From the IMG/VR virus record IMGVR_UViG_3300042563_002362: a stretch of 27,899 nt of DNA. One strand, 5' to 3'. Source of the stretch: a virus (taxonomy: Duplodnaviria > Heunggongvirae > Uroviricota > Caudoviricetes). Under the pieces are notes generated by a model. That model was not told where the DNA came from, searched no databases, and worked only from the letters and a program-made list of their open reading frames with translations. A program made the translations under genes and the position numbers. This document shows positions 3,264 to 25,384 of the stretch, in pieces. The stretch's first letter is position 1; each line of letters opens with the position of its first letter.

Positions 3264-3271
3264 TATAAATA
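3264..3271 (+). promoter_or_regulatory. Late promoter TATAAATA
   Basis: Exact motif 5 nt before ATG 3277. Confidence 0.75.
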
Positions 3272-3276
3272 CTTTC

Positions 3277-3900
3277 ATGGATTACAAACGCATCTATGAT
3301 GAGCTTATAGCATTTAGAAAGGTTAACATTCCTTCAGGATATGTTGAGCGACATCATATAATCATGACCTCACTAGGAGGCAGTGATGATGCTGATAATT
3401 TAGTTAAGCTAACTGGCCGCGAGCATTGGATTGCTCATCTTTTACTTCACCAGATCTATCAACGATCTGAAACCGCATATGCTTGTCATATGATGGCAAT
3501 GCGATGTGAAGAGCGTGAAATACCATGTATCAAAAGTTCGCGGGTCTATGAAAAGATACGAAAGGAATGTGCTAAATTAACCTCAAAGACAATGAAATTT
3601 CATCAAGCTGGTGAAAGAAATTCGCAATTTGGAACCCGCTACATATGTAATCTTGATCTTAAACAAAATAAAAAGATTAAGAAGACAGACAATATTCCTG
3701 AAGGATGGATTGCCGGTCGTAATAGATGGAATATTGAGTCCAAAGTATCTAAGCCTAAGTATGTACATACTGAAGAGCATAAACGTAACATATCTGTTTC
3801 TAATAAAGGGAAACCAAAAACGGAAGAATGGAGAACACAGATTTCAAACATTCAACGTGGTAAGATTCGAGGACCTTACAAAAAAGCTAACGTCGCATAG
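3277..3900 (+). CDS. HNH homing endonuclease (MobE-like), copy 1
   Basis: ERHHII..SLGGSDD..NLVKLTGREHWIAHLLL; C-terminal NSQFGT and HTEEHKRNIS modules. Confidence 0.9.
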   Translation: MDYKRIYDELIAFRKVNIPSGYVERHHIIMTSLGGSDDADNLVKLTGREHWIAHLLLHQIYQRSETAYACHMMAMRCEEREIPCIKSSRVYEKIRKECAKLTSKTMKFHQAGERNSQFGTRYICNLDLKQNKKIKKTDNIPEGWIAGRNRWNIESKVSKPKYVHTEEHKRNISVSNKGKPKTEEWRTQISNIQRGKIRGPYKKANVA

Positions 3901-4919: not shown

Positions 4920-5040
4920 TCTAAAATTTACCTAAACGGGCTCATGAAGCGTAGGGACGGGCTCTTCCAACAGCGTGATGGCTGAAGTCTTCGGACGAAG
5001 AGTATGTATATCTTGCAATAAGCGCTTTAATACTTTCAAA

Positions 5041-5115
5041 CGGGGTGAAGCTTTAATGGTGAAGCAGCAGGCTTTTAACTTGCAGAACTGGGATCGTTAC
5101 CCAGCGCCCTGACCA
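5041..5115 (+). tRNA. tRNA-Lys(TTT)
   Basis: gcagg CT-TTT-AA cttgc; T-loop ATCGTTA; CCA. Confidence 0.85.
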
Positions 5116-5134
5116 CTTTCAATATAATTAAACC

Positions 5135-5347
5135 ATGAAGCCAATACTTGCTACAAGTCAATTCTGCGGTCCTTGCAAACTGCTTAAAGACCGCCTTGAT
5201 CCGAACTCTTATGAGGTTCGAGACATGGAAAAAGACCGTGATTTTTTCATCGAAAACGGCATCCGTGCTGTTCCTATGCTCATCATAGGAACCGTGAAAA
5301 TCACAGGAATGGACAAAATCATCGCATATTTCGACGAAAACCCATAA
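5135..5347 (+). CDS. Glutaredoxin/NrdH-like thioredoxin-fold protein
   Basis: CGPC motif, GIRAVPMLII cis-Pro segment, 70 aa. Confidence 0.8.
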   Translation: MKPILATSQFCGPCKLLKDRLDPNSYEVRDMEKDRDFFIENGIRAVPMLIIGTVKITGMDKIIAYFDENP

Positions 5348-8241: not shown

Positions 8242-8249
8242 TATAAATA
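8242..8249 (+). promoter_or_regulatory. Late promoter TATAAATA
   Basis: Exact motif 5 nt before ATG 8255, inside palindrome gtattt-gtat-aaatac. Confidence 0.75.
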
Positions 8250-8254
8250 CTTTC

Positions 8255-8938
8255 ATGGATTACAAACGTATCTATGATGAACTTATTGCTTTTAGACAAG
8301 CTAACATTCCGTCCGGTTATGTTGAGCGTCATCATATTATCATGCGTTCTCTCGGTGGTTTGGATGATTCTATAAATCTTGTCGCATTAACTGGACGAGA
8401 GCATTGGATTGCTCATTTACTTCTTCATAAGATATATCGACGTTCTGAAACTGCTCATGCATGTAATATGATGGCAATGCGGTGTGAAGAACGCGGCATT
8501 GGATACATTAAGAATTCTAGAATGTATGAAAAGATTCGTAAGGAATGTGCGAAGCTAACTTCGATTAGAAATTCAGCTTCTCAATCTGGAGAACGCAATT
8601 CCCAACACGGTACACGTTGGATATGCAATATTGACCTTAAAGAAAACAAGAAGATTCTAAAGACTGATGCGATACCCGAAGGATGGATTGCTGGACGCGA
8701 TCATTGGAATCGTTTTATTGAAAAACAATGTTTGAAGTGTAAAACGATTTTCTTTGGTAAGCGCCTTGTCAAATATTGTTCTTCGGCATGCAGATCTCGT
8801 AAGTTAACGGACGAAGAAAAACATCATTTATCCAGGCAAGCTTTGCTATCAGGAAGAAATTCCGGTAAAAACAATGGCATGCATAAATCAAAACTTTCTC
8901 GATTGGCCTCGGTATCGGAACGTGCTTCTAACGCGTAG
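8255..8938 (+). CDS. HNH homing endonuclease (MobE-like), copy 2, with extra Cys-rich module
   Basis: N-terminal part highly similar to 3277 ORF; CLKC...YCSSAC. Confidence 0.9.
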   Translation: MDYKRIYDELIAFRQANIPSGYVERHHIIMRSLGGLDDSINLVALTGREHWIAHLLLHKIYRRSETAHACNMMAMRCEERGIGYIKNSRMYEKIRKECAKLTSIRNSASQSGERNSQHGTRWICNIDLKENKKILKTDAIPEGWIAGRDHWNRFIEKQCLKCKTIFFGKRLVKYCSSACRSRKLTDEEKHHLSRQALLSGRNSGKNNGMHKSKLSRLASVSERASNA

Positions 8939-9868: not shown

Positions 9869-9943
9869 CGGCGCTAAGCTTTAATGGTGAAGCATCAGGT
9901 TTTTACCCTGAGGAACTCGGATCGTTACCGAGAGCGCTGACCA
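9869..9943 (+). tRNA. tRNA-Lys(TTT)
   Basis: tcagg TT-TTT-AC cctga; CCA. Confidence 0.85.
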
Positions 9944-9950
9944 CTTTAAT

Positions 9951-10025
9951 GCTTGTGTAGCTCAACGGTAGAGCACGGAATTCTAACCTCCTGTGGTATG
10001 GGTTCAAATCCCATCATAAGCACCA
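9951..10025 (+). tRNA. Putative amber-suppressor tRNA (CTA)
   Basis: gcttgtg ta gctc aacggta gagc a cggaa TT-CTA-AC ctcct gtggt atggg TTCAAAT cccat cataagc a cca; canonical numbering puts CTA at 34-36. Confidence 0.68.
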
Positions 10026-10033
10026 CTCTCAAA

Positions 10034-10041
10034 GATAAATA
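10034..10041 (+). promoter_or_regulatory. Late-promoter-like GATAAATA
   Basis: One mismatch to TATAAATA, 5 nt before ATG 10047. Confidence 0.55.
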
Positions 10042-10046
10042 CAAAT

Positions 10047-10667
10047 ATGAAAACAAACGCATAGGTACAGAATGTTCTTGATGACATGTCGAGAACTCAA
10101 CAGACGGAAACACAAACGATATTGGATCATGGCTTAAGTGTGTGGTCTTTCTCAGAACGAATCTTGAGGAAGGATACCGATGGCATGAAGATACCAACTT
10201 GGTTCACTGATCATTATGGTTTTATACTTGACAATTTGCATAACGTTGAGATCATCAAAGAATACAACGTAATGCATGATTGTGGCAAGCCATACTGTTT
10301 AGAGATTGACGAGAATGGTAAAAGACATTTTCCTAATCATGCTGCTGTTTCCGAAAGAACTTATCGCGCTTTACCAGATTCCAAAGATGAGGTTGCACGC
10401 CTAATTGGTCTTGATATGTTGTTGCATACTGCAACCGCCGAAGAGGTCAATGCGCTCCGCCTAAGCATCGCTGATGCATTTACTTTGCTCCTAACTGCTT
10501 TCGCTGAAGTTCATTCAAACGCAAGTATGTTTGGAGGTACCGATAGCATATCCTTTAAGTCAAAGTGGAAGAAACTTGACCGAAGAGGTAAGATGTTAGT
10601 TTTAGATTTTTATGGAAGTCGCCCGGATGGACGAGGACACTGTCTTGAAAACAGCTGGGGCCTATAA
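10047..10667 (+). CDS. HD-domain-like phosphohydrolase with in-frame TAG at codon 6 (10062-10064); uninterrupted ORF from 10086
   Basis: ILDHG...MHDCGKPYC...HFPNHA motifs; MKTNA*VQNVLDDM is in frame with 10086; 3' end overlaps tRNA-Ser. Confidence 0.6.
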
Positions 10668-10702
10668 AGCCCTCGTGGGTTCGAACCCCACGGCTTCCGC
10701 CA
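10614..10702 (+). tRNA. tRNA-Ser(TGA)
   Basis: ctgt CT-TGA-AA acag; variable arm; G73; CCA. Confidence 0.9.
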
Positions 10703-16699: not shown

Positions 16700-17884
16700 A
16701 TGAAAGCGCAAATTGTAATTGACACCTCTTTTGGTGATGGTGGTAAAGGCCTGACGGTGGATAATCTCTGCCGTCAGGCCGTCCTCCGCGGCGAGTCTGT
16801 AGCAGTTGTTCGCTTTAGTGGCGGTCAGCAATGCGGTCATACTGTTATCCGCGAAGGGATTAAGCATGTCTTTTCTACGTATGGTTCCGGAACTCTTCAA
16901 GGTATTCCTACCTATTATACTGAACATGCGACGATGAGTCTGCAGGCAACACTGACAGAGTATTTTGCTCTGCGTGAAAAGTGTATAGAGCCAAAGCTGT
17001 ATTTCCATCCTCAGACACGTCTCACTACACCATATGATGTTGCTTACAATCGTGCAAAAGAAAGTGCTGCTTACTCTGGCGGTCGTGCAGGTGATGTACG
17101 ACATGGGAGCTGTGGCATGGGAGTTGGCGCTACTCTAAAGCGTCATGACGAAACACCATACAAGATTTATGTAAGCGATTTGCTTTATCCTCAACTATTA
17201 AGACAAAAGCTCGACGGCATTAAAATGTACTATGCACGTAAAGTTCATTCTGAAGCTCTTAATGATAGTGACGGTCTTGGACACGGTCAATCGTTTTACA
17301 GTGCTTTTCATTCTGAAGTAAACGAGCAACTTGAATCTTTCGAAGCAGCTCTTGAACTAAGCAAAGAACATGTCGCGTTTGAAATTGCTAACCTTTACCC
17401 AAACCAATTTCGCAATTTGATCTATGAAGGTTCTCAGGGAGTTCTTCTTGACATGGATCATGGTATCTTTCCAAACGTAACTTACGGTAATACGACGTGC
17501 AAGAACGCAATTGAACATGCGTCGCGCTTGGGTATTCGTGACATCGAATTATTCTATGTGTCGCGTTGCTATCTCACACGTCATGGTCGCGGATGGATGC
17601 CAAATGAAACTGAAATCAAATTGGTCAATACCGATGAAGAGATTAATGTTACTAATCCCTGGCAAGAACATTTACGAATTGGAGAACTTGACTATGATTT
17701 GATTGACTATGCCTTGACGGTTGACAATGGATATCATCGTGATTCCTATCGTCGTAACATGGTGATTACTTGTCTTGATCAACGTCCTGATTGGAAACTT
17801 GACACCACTCGTCTTCCATACTACATTCAAGGAGTCTACACAAATGCATCTCCGCAAGCTGACTCTTGGGTGCTTGCGAAATAA
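16700..17884 (+). CDS. purA: Adenylosuccinate synthetase-like protein (divergent PurA family)
   Basis: FGDGGKG, RFSGG..GHTV, HGSCGMG, EGSQGVLLD, SRCYLTRHG.G. Confidence 0.85.
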   Translation: MKAQIVIDTSFGDGGKGLTVDNLCRQAVLRGESVAVVRFSGGQQCGHTVIREGIKHVFSTYGSGTLQGIPTYYTEHATMSLQATLTEYFALREKCIEPKLYFHPQTRLTTPYDVAYNRAKESAAYSGGRAGDVRHGSCGMGVGATLKRHDETPYKIYVSDLLYPQLLRQKLDGIKMYYARKVHSEALNDSDGLGHGQSFYSAFHSEVNEQLESFEAALELSKEHVAFEIANLYPNQFRNLIYEGSQGVLLDMDHGIFPNVTYGNTTCKNAIEHASRLGIRDIELFYVSRCYLTRHGRGWMPNETEIKLVNTDEEINVTNPWQEHLRIGELDYDLIDYALTVDNGYHRDSYRRNMVITCLDQRPDWKLDTTRLPYYIQGVYTNASPQADSWVLAK

Positions 17885-17907
17885 ATTACATCAGTCATAA
17901 ATTTTTA

Positions 17908-17936
17908 TTTACATCTGTCACATTTTTGATTATAAT
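17908..17936 (+). promoter_or_regulatory. Early promoter TTTACA-N17-TATAAT
   Basis: Exact motif 6 nt before ATG 17943. Confidence 0.8.
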
Positions 17937-17942
17937 AAACAC

Positions 17943-19250
17943 ATGAAAACAAACATTAAGAATACTCCGAAGAACTTCACCCACGAAGGCGCGGTTGCGA
18001 AAAACATCAATGCAAAGCAAGAATTGCGACGCACCGTTATGTCGTGTTTGCTGTGGGAAAATAGTTTCTATGAAAGCGGTGTCGATATCGCTTCACGCAT
18101 CGCAGATCTTGTTCCACGCGTAAGCGGTAAGGAAGCAATGGAGATTGCAATTGAATGTCGATCCTCAATGAAGCTGCGTCATACGCCGCTTTACATTGCT
18201 CGACTTATGGCACAAAACGCGCATCAGCGCGAGTATGTTGCACAGACGTTGTATGCAGTCATCCAGCGTGCAGACGAACTCTCTGAGTTCCTTTCTCTCT
18301 ACTGGAAGAATGGCCGTGTCCCAATTGCTAAGCAGGTCAAGAAAGGTCTTGCGTCGGCGTTCACCAAGTTCAATGAATATGCTCTTGCAAAGTATAATCG
18401 TGATGGTGCAATCAAGCTGCGTGACGTCTTGTTCATGGTACACGCTAAGCCAAAGGATGCCGAACAGGCTGCTCTTTGGAAGCGCCTTGTCAACGACGAA
18501 TTGAAGACTCCAGATACCTGGGAAGTTGAATTGTCGGCTTCGTCTGACAAGAAGGCTTCTTGGACTCGTCTGTTGTCCGAAAATAAGTTGGGTGCATTGG
18601 CGCTGTTGCGTAACCTTCGTAACATGAAGAACGCTGGTGTGGACGACATGCTAATTCGTGACGCATTGCGTAATATCAATGCAGATCGTGTTCTTCCATT
18701 TCGTTTCATCAGTGCTGCGCGTCATGCACCAAGTCTTGAAGCTGAACTTGAAGCTGGTATGTTTAAGTGTTTGGAGGGACACGCTAAGTTGCCAGGTAAG
18801 ACTGTAGTGTTGATCGACGTCTCTGGTTCGATGATTTGGAAGATCAGCGACAAGAGTGACATCAACCGTATTGACACTGCATGTGGACTTGCTATGCTGC
18901 TACGTGAAATTTGTGATACCGTCGAGGTTCATACTTTCTCAACTGCAGTTCGTGAAGTTGCACCACGTCGTGGTTTTGCACTCGCCGAAGCTATCAATCG
19001 TTCTCAGCCATACGGCGGAACTGATCTTGGGCATGCGGTTAAAACGGTCAATGGAATCAACTGTGATCGTCTAATCGTTATCACCGACGAACAGAGCTCG
19101 ACACGAGTTCCAGATCCAGTGTGCAAGAAGAGCTACATGATCAACGTTGCTTCTTACAAGAACGGTGTTGGTTATGGCCCTTGGACTCATATTGACGGTT
19201 GGAGCGATTCAATCGTTACTTACATCCAGGCGCTCGAAAACACGCATTGA
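17943..19250 (+). CDS. rsr: Ro60/Rsr TROVE-domain RNA-binding protein
   Basis: THEGA, ELRRTVMSCLLWE.SFYE, KYNRD...LRDVLFMVH, TPDTWE, ALLRNLRNM, vWA DVSGSM and ITDEQ. Confidence 0.93.
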   Translation: MKTNIKNTPKNFTHEGAVAKNINAKQELRRTVMSCLLWENSFYESGVDIASRIADLVPRVSGKEAMEIAIECRSSMKLRHTPLYIARLMAQNAHQREYVAQTLYAVIQRADELSEFLSLYWKNGRVPIAKQVKKGLASAFTKFNEYALAKYNRDGAIKLRDVLFMVHAKPKDAEQAALWKRLVNDELKTPDTWEVELSASSDKKASWTRLLSENKLGALALLRNLRNMKNAGVDDMLIRDALRNINADRVLPFRFISAARHAPSLEAELEAGMFKCLEGHAKLPGKTVVLIDVSGSMIWKISDKSDINRIDTACGLAMLLREICDTVEVHTFSTAVREVAPRRGFALAEAINRSQPYGGTDLGHAVKTVNGINCDRLIVITDEQSSTRVPDPVCKKSYMINVASYKNGVGYGPWTHIDGWSDSIVTYIQALENTH

Positions 19251-22346: not shown

Positions 22347-22969
22347 TTGGAATAATACTTGCTCATGGAAAAGCACAAAAGATGTTCGACTTACATCTAC
22401 CAAATTGGGAAGCTGTCTTTGACAAAATATGCGTGGTGTGTCCATTAGACGACATTGTTGAATACCACAGTGAGGTACATTCGCTCGGTCTATCTGAACA
22501 TCATGGATACTGGAATTGTGAACGTATGCGTTATGCATGCCAAATTGCAAGTTCATACGCAGACGCATGCATAGTTGAATATGATACGTTAATTTACAAC
22601 CTACCATATACCGATGATACTTTACGTGGATGTGGACCAATGTATGACTATGAGCCAAATTTTGTAGCACCATGGTTTACTCATAGTCCGTGGATGACAA
22701 CGAGGGAGAACTTCAATGCGATTTCAAAGTATGAGGTACTTGAAGGTAAGCATGAATACTGTGATCGTTGGTTAGCTGAAGCATGTGTCGTTCTTGGTAT
22801 AAAGCCGTCAAATTTAGAGTCTTACTACACTCCATGTTGCGGATACATACGCGATGCAAATGAATGGAAGAACATGGTGACATCTGCGCATTCTAAGAAT
22901 CTAAGCGCGATTCATGGAATTAAAGAGGAATTTCTCTCAAAAACTATTTCTGCAATACGTAAGATTTAG
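22343..22969 (+). CDS. Hypothetical, possibly glycosyltransferase-like protein
   Basis: 208-aa ORF in the glycan cluster; IVEYD motif. Confidence 0.65.
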   Translation: MIGIILAHGKAQKMFDLHLPNWEAVFDKICVVCPLDDIVEYHSEVHSLGLSEHHGYWNCERMRYACQIASSYADACIVEYDTLIYNLPYTDDTLRGCGPMYDYEPNFVAPWFTHSPWMTTRENFNAISKYEVLEGKHEYCDRWLAEACVVLGIKPSNLESYYTPCCGYIRDANEWKNMVTSAHSKNLSAIHGIKEEFLSKTISAIRKI

Positions 22970-22970
22970 A

Positions 22971-22999
22971 TTTACATTCCGTCATAACTGTGGTATAAT
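22971..22999 (+). promoter_or_regulatory. Early promoter TTTACA-N17-TATAAT
   Basis: Exact motif 5 nt before ATG 23005. Confidence 0.8.
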
Positions 23000-23004
23000 T
23001 TGGC

Positions 23005-23931
23005 ATGCGCCAATTACGCCTCGGTCTTGTTTGTATTTCTGAAGTTCTTAAGAATAGCCGCAAGGTTGCTTTTAAGACAATGACACGCAAGCAGTACCTA
23101 AGTATGCCACGCGAGCGCGCGCTGCAAATCTTAAGCGCTCGTACATTGCATAATGCGTCCACTATTCGATGCGATATCTTGCCACATCTATCAGCGGTTG
23201 GTATTTCTCATTACCGCGTCAGCAGCTCAATGTTCCCACTAGTCACCGATAAGACTCTCGGACTGTGTTATGATGATCTTCCAGACATGCAACTTATTCG
23301 CGACAATCTTGCGGCTGCTGGACAGTTTGCACGCGTAAACAATATCAGCATCAGTTGTCATCCAGATCAGTATAATGTACTTGCTTCTTACAGCGAGGAT
23401 GTTGTCATCAATTCAATTAATGAGCTGAATCATCAGAGCAATGTTCTTGACATGATGGGGTTGCCTCAGGACCTTTCTTCGTCCATGTGCTTGCATCTAA
23501 ACGCTAGTCCAAAGTTTAAGATTGAAGACTGCCTTGGTTATCGTCAACGGTTCATCGACAATCTTGCGCGTTGTAATGACGGTGTACGTGCACGCCTTGT
23601 TCTTGAGAATGAGGACAAAGGATTTTGGAATTGCGACAACCTTTACGCTTTCTTCCACGACGTTCGTCCGCTTGTTTTTGACAATCTGCATAACGCATGC
23701 AATCCGTCTGAGTATGTTGAAGACGTGTATGCAATTATGTTTTCTTCTACTTGGCGGCAACATCGACCAATTTTCCACTGGAGCGAAGGTATTGACGGTA
23801 CGTCGAAGCATGCTCGTCGCGCATCGCATATCCCGGAAATCGTCAAAAACAACGGCGACATATGCACCTGGGAAGTCGAACTGAAAGACAAAGACTATGC
23901 AATTTTGGAGATTTTGGAGAAATTTTCATAA
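23005..23931 (+). CDS. uvsE: UV-damage endonuclease (UvsE/UVDE)
   Basis: RLGLVC, YRVSSSMFP, SCHPDQYNVL, RLVLENED, VFDNLH, WEVELKDKDYA. Confidence 0.92.
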   Translation: MRQLRLGLVCISEVLKNSRKVAFKTMTRKQYLSMPRERALQILSARTLHNASTIRCDILPHLSAVGISHYRVSSSMFPLVTDKTLGLCYDDLPDMQLIRDNLAAAGQFARVNNISISCHPDQYNVLASYSEDVVINSINELNHQSNVLDMMGLPQDLSSSMCLHLNASPKFKIEDCLGYRQRFIDNLARCNDGVRARLVLENEDKGFWNCDNLYAFFHDVRPLVFDNLHNACNPSEYVEDVYAIMFSSTWRQHRPIFHWSEGIDGTSKHARRASHIPEIVKNNGDICTWEVELKDKDYAILEILEKFS

Positions 23932-24467: not shown

Positions 24468-24626
24468 ATGGATGCTAAACAACTACTTTCATTGCTAACA
24501 ACACAAGACTTTGAGGATTGGTATCGAACTGATCTTGAGGACTACATCCGTGGCGAAGAAAACGCAAAGACAACCGAACAAATGCTCGCCGATCTCCAGA
24601 ACTTTATCAATCAACAATCACGATGA
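24468..24626 (+). CDS. Small hypothetical protein (52 aa)
   Basis: MDAKQLLSLLTTQDFEDWY...; ATGA-coupled to 24623. Confidence 0.62.
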   Translation: MDAKQLLSLLTTQDFEDWYRTDLEDYIRGEENAKTTEQMLADLQNFINQQSR

Positions 24627-25384
24627 CTAATCATTCAATTACTACCCACCCTTCCTTCGAAAAATGCCGCGGCCGTTTGCTCTGCGAACTTATCGGCGGA
24701 TCTACTCTTTATGGTCTCAATACGCCTGACAGCGACATTGATTACCGCGGCTTGTTCTTCGCTTCAGATAAGCAATATGTTGCAGGCTTTGACAGCATCG
24801 AGAGCATCGTTCAAACTGGTGAAGTTGATTCGGCTTACTATGAGCTGACTCATTACCTGAAACTGCTGCGCAAGTCCAATACCCAGGTGCTTGAAATCCT
24901 CTTTGCTCCTGAACATTCATTCACTGTGACTTCTACGCTGTTTAAGCGCATCCGTGAAAATCGTTATAATCTCATCGACAGCTATGTGCTGAAGGGCAGT
25001 CTTAAAGGCTATGTCTTTAGCGAAATGCGACTTGCGACTGGTGAACGTAGCGGCCGCCTTGGCGGCAAGCGTAAGGAAGTAGTTACTCAATACGGCTTTT
25101 CTCCGAAGAACTTCGTCCAGATCATGCGTCTTTGCCGTGTCGGTCAGCGGCTCTTTACGGACGGCGATTACATGGTGAACGTGCAGTTGTCCGATCCATC
25201 GTTTCATGAGGAACTGATGGACATCAAAACCCAACCGCAGAAATACACCGTTGAGCAGCTTAAGGCTCGTGTTGCCTCTGAATATGATCTTCTTGTTCAG
25301 GCAATGGACAACAGCTCTGTCAACTACTCATTTGACTCCGAACTTGCGGCTGACTTGATCATGACCGCTCGTGATAATTACTAA
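24623..25384 (+). CDS. Pol-beta superfamily nucleotidyltransferase (RlaP/YcgL-like)
   Basis: GGSTLYGLNTPDSDIDYRG signature; LLRKSNTQVLEILF. Confidence 0.85.
   Translation: MTNHSITTHPSFEKCRGRLLCELIGGSTLYGLNTPDSDIDYRGLFFASDKQYVAGFDSIESIVQTGEVDSAYYELTHYLKLLRKSNTQVLEILFAPEHSFTVTSTLFKRIRENRYNLIDSYVLKGSLKGYVFSEMRLATGERSGRLGGKRKEVVTQYGFSPKNFVQIMRLCRVGQRLFTDGDYMVNVQLSDPSFHEELMDIKTQPQKYTVEQLKARVASEYDLLVQAMDNSSVNYSFDSELAADLIMTARDNY

Follow-up and report, generated by a model that had tools for sequence, protein, structure and literature searches.

Why should a tRNA gene with the anticodon of an amber suppressor stand directly in front of a gene that carries an amber codon close to its start? This question is raised by a 27,899-nt stretch of DNA (hereafter the window) from a virus of the Caudoviricetes (IMG/VR record IMGVR_UViG_3300042563_002362), which lies inside a 60.5-kb viral record of ∼28% estimated completeness. 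Here the encoded CCA end of a tRNA with anticodon CUA (position 10025) is followed after 21 nt by an ATG (10047) that opens a five-codon leader, MKTNA, an in-frame TAG at codon 6, seven further codons (VQNVLDD) and a conserved Met codon (10086) at which standard-code calling begins the open reading frame (ORF) of an HD-domain-like protein. The initial annotation of this DNA proposed a local read-through switch in which the tRNA licenses this one enzyme, and comparison with homologous loci supports that proposal in three ways, as the TAG is conserved, the codons past it are under protein-type selection and tRNA-CUA travels with the gene. We think it probable that translation of a tRNA-end enzyme is gated by the amber codon, and the family-wide evidence indicates that the gated HD gene is a widespread module and not a one-off of this phage.

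Every element of the described arrangement is present, from the 21-nt distance after the CCA and the motif-N5-ATG to the MKTNA-TAG-VQNVLDDM frame that continues into the ORF (Table 1), and the arrangement is not confined to the window. Within the close clade, composed of the window and six contigs (L005, L007, L008, L009, L010 and L012; 64–95% protein identity), tRNA-CUA lies directly upstream of the HD gene in all six relatives, and the CUA anticodon is kept in 7/7 tRNAs despite substitutions in the stems. The leader peptides vary (MKTNA, MNTNT, MNTNA, MKNNNA or MKHT), while all 7 contigs share the same pattern of an ATG followed by 3–5 codons, TAG, exactly 21 nt and an ATG. As the whole arrangement of tRNA-CUA, leader and TAG is kept in the six relatives and family-wide, its combination with the HD ORF is far beyond chance.

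A nonsense mutation or an assembly error in a decaying gene would be the simplest account of the TAG, and nothing beyond the stop codon itself speaks for it. DNA nearly identical to the window is present in many lake and freshwater metagenomes, and three runs from lakes or fresh water (2016, 2023 and 2024) yielded contigs, one of them possibly the source of the window, that show zero differences over positions 9900–10700, so neither the TAG nor the CTA of the anticodon is an error. The TAG is moreover conserved in relatives of 64–95% identity and throughout the family, and the catalytic residues of the HD protein are invariant, so that this explanation deserves scarcely any weight.

The tRNA itself scores 60.1 bits against the Rfam tRNA family RF00005 (gathering score 29, E 2.8e-12), and the sequence, the ARAGORN call and the Rfam alignment agree with the earlier placement of CTA at positions 34–36 between U33 and A37. 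Its architecture is standard, with a short variable loop (5 nt), G1-C72, A73, a D-loop with GG and a GTTCAAATC T-loop. The TCT (Arg) register, which had been judged the poorer one, gives no pairing stem in the window or in L005 when read from the sequence, and the tRNA-Arg reading was rejected. A pyrrolysine system, in which an atypical tRNA architecture is accompanied by pylS and pylBCD, was likewise rejected, as the architecture of the CUA tRNA is standard and the ten ORFs scanned against Pfam contain no synthetase-like gene; the ARAGORN label ‘tRNA-Pyl’ for CUA tRNAs is a naming convention only. ARAGORN places 40 tRNA genes, this one among them, on the window's + strand; the closest paralogue of the CUA tRNA inside this array is a tRNA-Val with 73% identity. 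BLAST returned no match of the CUA tRNA to E. coli genomes and only six weak partial matches to phages, one of them under an annotated tRNA-Met. Elsewhere in the family, four loci (L035, L049, L050 and L059) have two CUA tRNAs each, which in some phages are different, neighbouring tRNAs whose acceptor stems are unrelated. In the set as a whole, several CUA tRNAs carry U1-A72 and G73, which we take to be glutamine-like features, and others carry G1-C72 and A73 as in the window; these suppressors may have several origins and insert differing amino acids.

If ribosomes pass the TAG, the codons that follow it will be selected as protein. Across the clade, differences in the 21-nt stretch between the TAG and the conserved Met are distributed 50:22:83 over the three codon positions, and synonymous to non-synonymous codon differences number 41/60 in the HD frame, as compared to 10/99 and 1/107 in the other two. 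No ATG, GTG or TTG occurs inside the stretch in 6/7 relatives, and the sole in-frame entry is by way of the TAG. As coding-type substitutions are found in that frame only, ribosomes appear to translate the VQNVLDD stretch in the HD frame, making it a part of the protein. In agreement with this, residues 5–16 of the read-through product of the window gene form a single, confidently predicted helix across the TAG position and Met14 in the AlphaFold2 (AF2) model. In E. coli an A on the 3′ side of UAG favours suppression; of the 67 family loci that have a TAG, 44 have A as the next base, 15 have G, 8 have C and none has T.

These 67 belong to a set of 80 IMG/VR loci (33–95% identity) and four cultured phages (XacN1, RAS14, Xoo-sp13 and pT24), reduced to 76 non-redundant loci. 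In 67 of these the nearest stop in frame ahead of the conserved Met is TAG, in 6 it is TGA and in 3 TAA, as compared to 44, 75 and 122, respectively, for the bounding stops of 241 neighbouring control ORFs from the same loci. An ATG lies 1–8 codons ahead of the TAG in 64/67 TAG loci, fixing the TAG at codons 2–9 across the family, and the full leader pattern is thus present at 64/76 loci but at only 6/241 controls, of which at least 2 are themselves PTH2 genes. Fisher tests give p = 8e-29 for the excess of TAG and p = 3e-47 for the full leader pattern, values that are indicative only given that the loci are related.

A leader peptide could also end at such a stop, with the enzyme made by re-initiation or by an independent start at AUG 10086 and the tRNA-CUA linked to the gene by shared tRNA biology only. 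Very short ORFs are known regulatory devices, the distance from TAG to Met is a short 15–42 nt in most loci (it rises to ∼370 nt where a PTH2 domain comes first), and the Met is present in 70/76 loci. For such a leader, however, any stop would do, yet TAG is found in 88% of loci as compared to 18% of controls. In one case even the identity of the stop changes together with the tRNA: the PTH2-HD gene of L079 begins with ATG, six codons and TGA, and the same record encodes a tRNA-UCA, which argues that stop codon and anticodon covary. A second candidate for such a TGA lock, ‘ATG TTG TGA’ in L070, was rejected because it proved to be the tail of the gene before it, which shares the frame. Re-initiation also offers no account of the coding-type substitutions past the stop or of the conserved motif there, which homologues without a stop share. 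Seven of these (L063, L026, L093, L035, L082, L054 and L068) begin with an ordinary ATG and run without interruption across the TAG position, their N-terminal extension carrying the motif x-L-I-x-D-M.

If the conserved Met were the true start, it should furthermore be present wherever the protein is made. Six of the 76 loci have a non-start codon at this position (CTA, TTA, GTT, GTA, GGG and CTC; CTC in L077 and GTA in L071); in RAS14 it is CTA, and the annotated start lies 18 codons further downstream. In pT24 and seven other loci with an N-terminal PTH2 domain the first PTH2 strand and helix come after the TAG but before the first ATG, placing half of the domain ahead of any AUG start; when pT24 is read through, the product covers positions 5–115 of the 115-position PTH2 profile (32 bits), while the annotated start cuts the domain. 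Members that lack the Met or carry an N-terminal PTH2 thus cannot make the conserved N-terminus without read-through. The initial annotation regarded homologues starting at the 10086 Met as an outcome that would speak against the switch, and 28/31 called homologues, as well as the annotated XacN1 and Xoo-sp13 genes, do start there. The DNA upstream of these starts, however, shows the leader of ATG, few codons and TAG almost everywhere, and since no standard-code gene caller can place a start ahead of a TAG, the called starts are, judging by that DNA, a gene-caller artefact. Together, we regard re-initiation or an independent start as unlikely.

A compromise between the two would be a lock that leaks: a short form would be made at basal level from AUG 10086, and a longer form with a 13-residue N-terminal helix only with the suppressor, the two differing in activity, partner binding or stability. 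Such a model makes room for both the conserved Met and the conserved TAG, and the AF2 helix gives the extension a defined structure that the short form lacks. It is nevertheless difficult to apply to the members without a Met at this position, which cannot make the short form, and in the window phage, which has no Shine-Dalgarno sequences, nothing marks 10086 as a start; we therefore hold two products to be quite improbable, while Met 10086 may still serve as a fallback internal start. In XacN1, Xoo-sp13 and RAS14, a Shine-Dalgarno sequence precedes the leader ATG and not the annotated start. A tentative 9-bp hairpin with AUG 10086 in or beside its loop could hinder independent initiation there and so would be a weak point against both initiation at this AUG and re-initiation. 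When aligned over the 7 relatives, 85.7% of its cells are paired as compared to 25–52% with slid partners, and there is one compensatory pair, but the predicted folding is not significant (34/500 shuffles equal, z-score 0.54).

No Shine-Dalgarno sequences were found for genes in the 60.5-kb record. Several genes have TTTACA-N17-TATAAT and, 5–6 nt later, ATG (e.g. 17903–17945 and 22965–23007), others have TATAAATA-N4/5-ATG, and many ATGs of the record are found 4–6 nt downstream of TATAAT or of a TATAAATA-like motif, suggesting that leaderless or near-leaderless mRNAs are widespread in this phage. The HD gene had been described as a late gene with the promoter-to-ATG spacing of other late genes. 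The spacing stands, as TATAAATA-N4/5-ATG is also found ahead of the ORFs starting at 2140, 3277 and 8255. The assignment to the late class is at most presumptive: the motif here is GATAAATA and not TATAAATA, and its ATAAATA core, kept in L005 and L007–L009, is absent in L010 and L012.

Another possibility is that TAG is reassigned throughout the genome (code 15) and that the TAG of the HD gene is one of many sense TAGs. The phage does encode a tRNA-CUA, and a distant HD homologue has a TAG within its gene body, but in the 60.5-kb record TAG read-through adds less open frame than TAA or TGA read-through, and 7/51 de-overlapped ORFs of ≥130 codons end in TAG. Other patterns of an ATG, a TAG and an open frame occur in the record at background rate (8/48 for TAG, as compared to 26/127 for TAA and 13/111 for TGA), and none of them looks conserved. 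The next in-frame stop lies a median of 7 codons past TAG stops and 11–13 past the others, a comparison for which the 7 TAG genes are too few. The fixed position of the TAG across the family and the normal annotation of the cultured relatives under the standard code point the same way. The earlier statement that there is no genome-wide recoding is thus borne out, by open-frame gain and TAG-ended ORFs, for the ∼28% of the genome that the record covers, and we consider code 15 highly improbable here. The distant homologue just mentioned (L006 2975–3540, the same as L068, a 359-kb IMG/VR contig) has a Shine-Dalgarno sequence and an ATG, no N-terminal TAG, and the internal TAG in …GDP-TAG-IAKLIG…; a PTH2-like ORF near it (L068 261–641) has an ATG TTG TAG leader. 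This phage may be partly or fully TAG-recoded.

If the TAG is read by a phage tRNA, such a tRNA should be found in the company of the gene. In flanks of 1.5 kb around the HD gene, CUA is the commonest anticodon, with 31 tRNAs as compared to ≤10 for any other, and at 10 loci tRNA-CUA is the sole tRNA in the flanks. RAS14, Xoo-sp13 and pT24 encode tRNA-CUA once each; in pT24 there are four tRNA matches, of which three are typed by ARAGORN, and the one with CUA lies ∼2.5 kb upstream of the gene. No suppressor was found among 41 of the 60 tRNAs in the L063 record or 23 of the 26 in the L026 record, both of which have stop-free genes. We infer that UAG is actually decoded, and by the CUA tRNA.

In the proposed mechanism, ribosomes would begin at AUG 10047, which is the first to follow the tRNA 3′ end and an A/T-rich promoter-like motif, and would reach the UAG after translating MKTNA. 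Should charged phage tRNA(CUA), whose gene lies 21 nt upstream, be available, the UAG would be decoded and translation would run on through VQNVLDD-M… to give a 205-residue HD-domain enzyme; otherwise release factor 1 would terminate after five residues. Enzyme output would therefore be tied to the amount of working suppressor tRNA, and as tRNA and mRNA are probably made together, the two would form a coherent feed-forward loop.

What the enzyme does bears on why it might be gated. The initial description of an HD-domain-like ORF holds: the protein matches PHROG 14850 (function unknown) at 7e-57 and has the invariant pattern H...HD...H...D, while its match to Pfam HD (PF01966) is below the cut-off (15.6 bits as compared to a gathering score of 22, E 0.02), so that it belongs to a divergent HD subfamily. 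Of the putative metal-binding residues expected of an HD phosphohydrolase, H15, H64-D65, H85, D110 and H114 are invariant in alignments of 32 and 40 sequences, and H81 is invariant in the former and nearly so in the latter. More than 500 metagenomic homologues occur in two forms, one of ∼177 aa that stands alone and one of ∼280 aa fused to a PTH2 peptidyl-tRNA-hydrolase domain. XacN1 ORF364 is a homologue of the window HD protein with 48.6% identity and has a PTH2 domain (25.3 bits); no PTH2 (PF01981) match was found in the 60.5-kb record. AF2 models the read-through product with a predicted local distance difference test score of 93.5 and the HD protein with 92.9. No PDB structure reached E ≤ 0.001 with Foldseek, the best fold matches being the Aquifex A-adding tRNA nucleotidyltransferase structures 3WFO–3WFS with moderate, query-normalised template modelling scores of 0.52–0.57, and profile matches to A-adding and CCA-adding enzymes are weak (E 0.04; TIGR02692 E 0.009). 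The protein is thus like these class II enzymes in fold, in weak profile matches and in the conserved H...HD...D; unlike them it has no nucleotidyltransferase head, scores far below the family cut-offs and occurs alone or fused to PTH2. Because of its resemblance to the C-terminal HD/body region of CCA/A-adding enzymes, the HD enzyme most likely acts on tRNA 3′ ends, which is our best guess.

Feed-forward control and tRNA-integrity sensing are, by inference, the candidate reasons for keeping the lock. In the second, the lock would be a sensor circuit for intact, CCA-tipped and charged phage tRNA that sets the levels of repair enzyme or hydrolase: the enzyme (HD, with PTH2 in relatives) would have tRNA ends as its substrate, how much of it is made would depend on the state of the phage's tRNA, and the phage would gauge its own tRNA pool, e.g. 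under attack by host tRNA-cleaving defences. The lock would also be a possible evolutionary foothold for the full reassignment of TAG in phages. We put the sensor and the foothold forward as speculative and rather doubtful.

Several observations weigh against amber gating. tRNA-CUA lies within the 1.5-kb flanks in only 27/76 loci. Four loci with stop-free genes still have CUA tRNAs (L035, L082 and L093, nearby, and L054, nearby or in the record), so that tRNA-CUA has other roles or other targets too. The conserved Met, found in most loci, means that internal initiation or re-initiation could supply the protein, and the kinship of the family loci makes the counts overstate their independence. 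The sole RNA match, in river metatranscriptome run X17, is to the tRNA-Ser part (10612–10700); its contig then runs on into sequence of another kind and carries no information on expression. Finally, the anticodon stem of the CUA tRNA has exactly the two mismatches that were noted initially, C.U at 27–43 and A.C at 31–39 (Rfam). A non-standard 27–43 pair (C.U, A.G or A.A) is, however, present in 7/7 clade CUA tRNAs (window 9977–9993 and its orthologues) and a non-standard 31–39 pair (A.C or C.C) in 5/7; as the 27–43 mismatch is conserved in all seven, the loosened stem looks like a kept feature rather than decay.

Downstream, homologues end at ∼177 aa, and the last ∼17–20 residues of the window HD ORF, absent from them, are of low confidence or disordered in the AF2 model; the overlap of the HD ORF with tRNA-Ser is shared by L005, and these last codons are an accidental run into the tRNA gene. 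The tRNA array also holds two paralogous endonuclease-like genes, at 3264–3900 (with a NUMOD3 motif) and 8242–8938, which have an identical, promoter-like 5′ end (TATAAATA-ctttc-ATG GAT TAC AAA) and both end in TAG, and the ORF at 2140–2814 has a weak SegE GIY-YIG match. Beside the array, a Ro60/TROVE-vWA protein and RlaP, a nucleotidyltransferase of an RNA repair pathway family, make up an RNA-repair theme, and a UvdE UV endonuclease and an adenylosuccinate synthetase are encoded there too. In the array of the 95%-identical L005 there is a transfer-messenger RNA gene (5012–5347, tag AKTQKAKIP), of which ARAGORN lists none in the window.

Table 1. Features of the locus and its surroundings (positions in the window)
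Feature	Position	Strand	Basis
tRNA, anticodon CUA, amber suppressor type, CCA encoded	9951..10025	+	ARAGORN; Rfam tRNA
Anticodon CTA, positions 34–36, flanked by U33 and A37	9983..9985	+	ARAGORN; Rfam; sequence
Putative T4-late-promoter-like motif GATAAATA, 5 nt before leader ATG	10034..10041	+	sequence
Leader ATG AAA ACA AAC GCA (MKTNA), proposed true start of HD gene	10047..10061	+	sequence, relatives
In-frame TAG, codon 6 (‘lock’)	10062..10064	+	conserved in clade and family
Seven codons VQNVLDD between TAG and conserved Met	10065..10085	+	coding-type substitutions
Conserved Met codon, standard-code called start	10086..10088	+	ATG in 70/76 loci
Complete read-through ORF, 206 codons including TAG, HD-domain protein	10047..10667	+	sequence, profiles
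193-codon ORF under the standard code, in frame with leader	10086..10667	+	ORF call
Tentative 9-bp hairpin, AUG 10086 in or beside loop	10074..10096	+	predicted folding
tRNA-Ser(UGA), overlaps last 54 nt of HD ORF (10614–10667)	10614..10702	+	ARAGORN
ORFs of Ro60/TROVE-vWA, RlaP, UvdE, adenylosuccinate synthetase group	17943–19250, 24623–25384, 23005–23931, 16700–17884		Pfam

How does such a lock relate to known systems? In recoded Lak and crAss-like phages, phage suppressor tRNAs read TAG as Gln (code 15) (bioRxiv 10.1101/2021.08.26.457843). These are alike in that a phage tRNA(CUA) decodes in-frame TAG while the host uses the standard code, and in that a role in the timing of particular genes has been proposed, but they have tens to hundreds of genes with many TAGs and have abandoned TAG as a stop. 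The window phage, in contrast, keeps the standard code and still ends genes with TAG, and the lock is a single TAG at codon 2–9 of one enzyme family in very distant phages; it may have preceded recoding, be left over from it, or have nothing to do with it. XacN1 is alike as a tRNA-rich jumbo phage with the standard code, an orphan tRNA-CUA and the homologous ORF364. It has two suppressor tRNA genes per terminal repeat, for which its authors, reading through annotated amber stops, could identify no target genes (PMC5852040). We propose as target the ATG AAG TAG upstream of the annotated start of ORF364, which that approach would have missed because the lock lies upstream of the annotated start.

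Programmed read-through in other viruses is alike in that a stop is decoded as sense to give a longer product. In the Q-beta A1 protein and in retroviral gag-pol, a few percent of ribosomes add a C-terminal extension with the help of host near-cognate tRNAs and mRNA signals. In the window gene, by contrast, the stop is N-terminal, termination would yield no more than five residues, and next to the gene lies that of a dedicated cognate tRNA. A further parallel is engineered: in feed-forward ‘leak dampeners’, an early amber codon and a co-regulated suppressor tRNA are reported to remove leaky expression (PMC7969014). These are synthetic, and the window module would be a natural, evolutionarily conserved counterpart. 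Our literature search found no paper describing a single, position-fixed amber lock with tRNA-CUA. Phage suppressor tRNAs that decode TAGs are thus known from recoded phages; a position-fixed single amber that standard-code phages keep in one enzyme family is a different use.

Large phages with the standard code commonly encode suppressor tRNAs, whose purpose has been an open question, and a conserved amber at the start of the gene for a tRNA-related enzyme gives such tRNAs a concrete target. The public annotations of the HD family start at the wrong codon, with the loss of the N-terminal helix or, in pT24-like forms, of half of the PTH2 domain. If read-through does take place, the module would be a natural translational AND-gate like those built by synthetic biologists, a possible intermediate between standard and recoded codes, and a source of natural pairs of suppressor tRNA and leader from many hosts.

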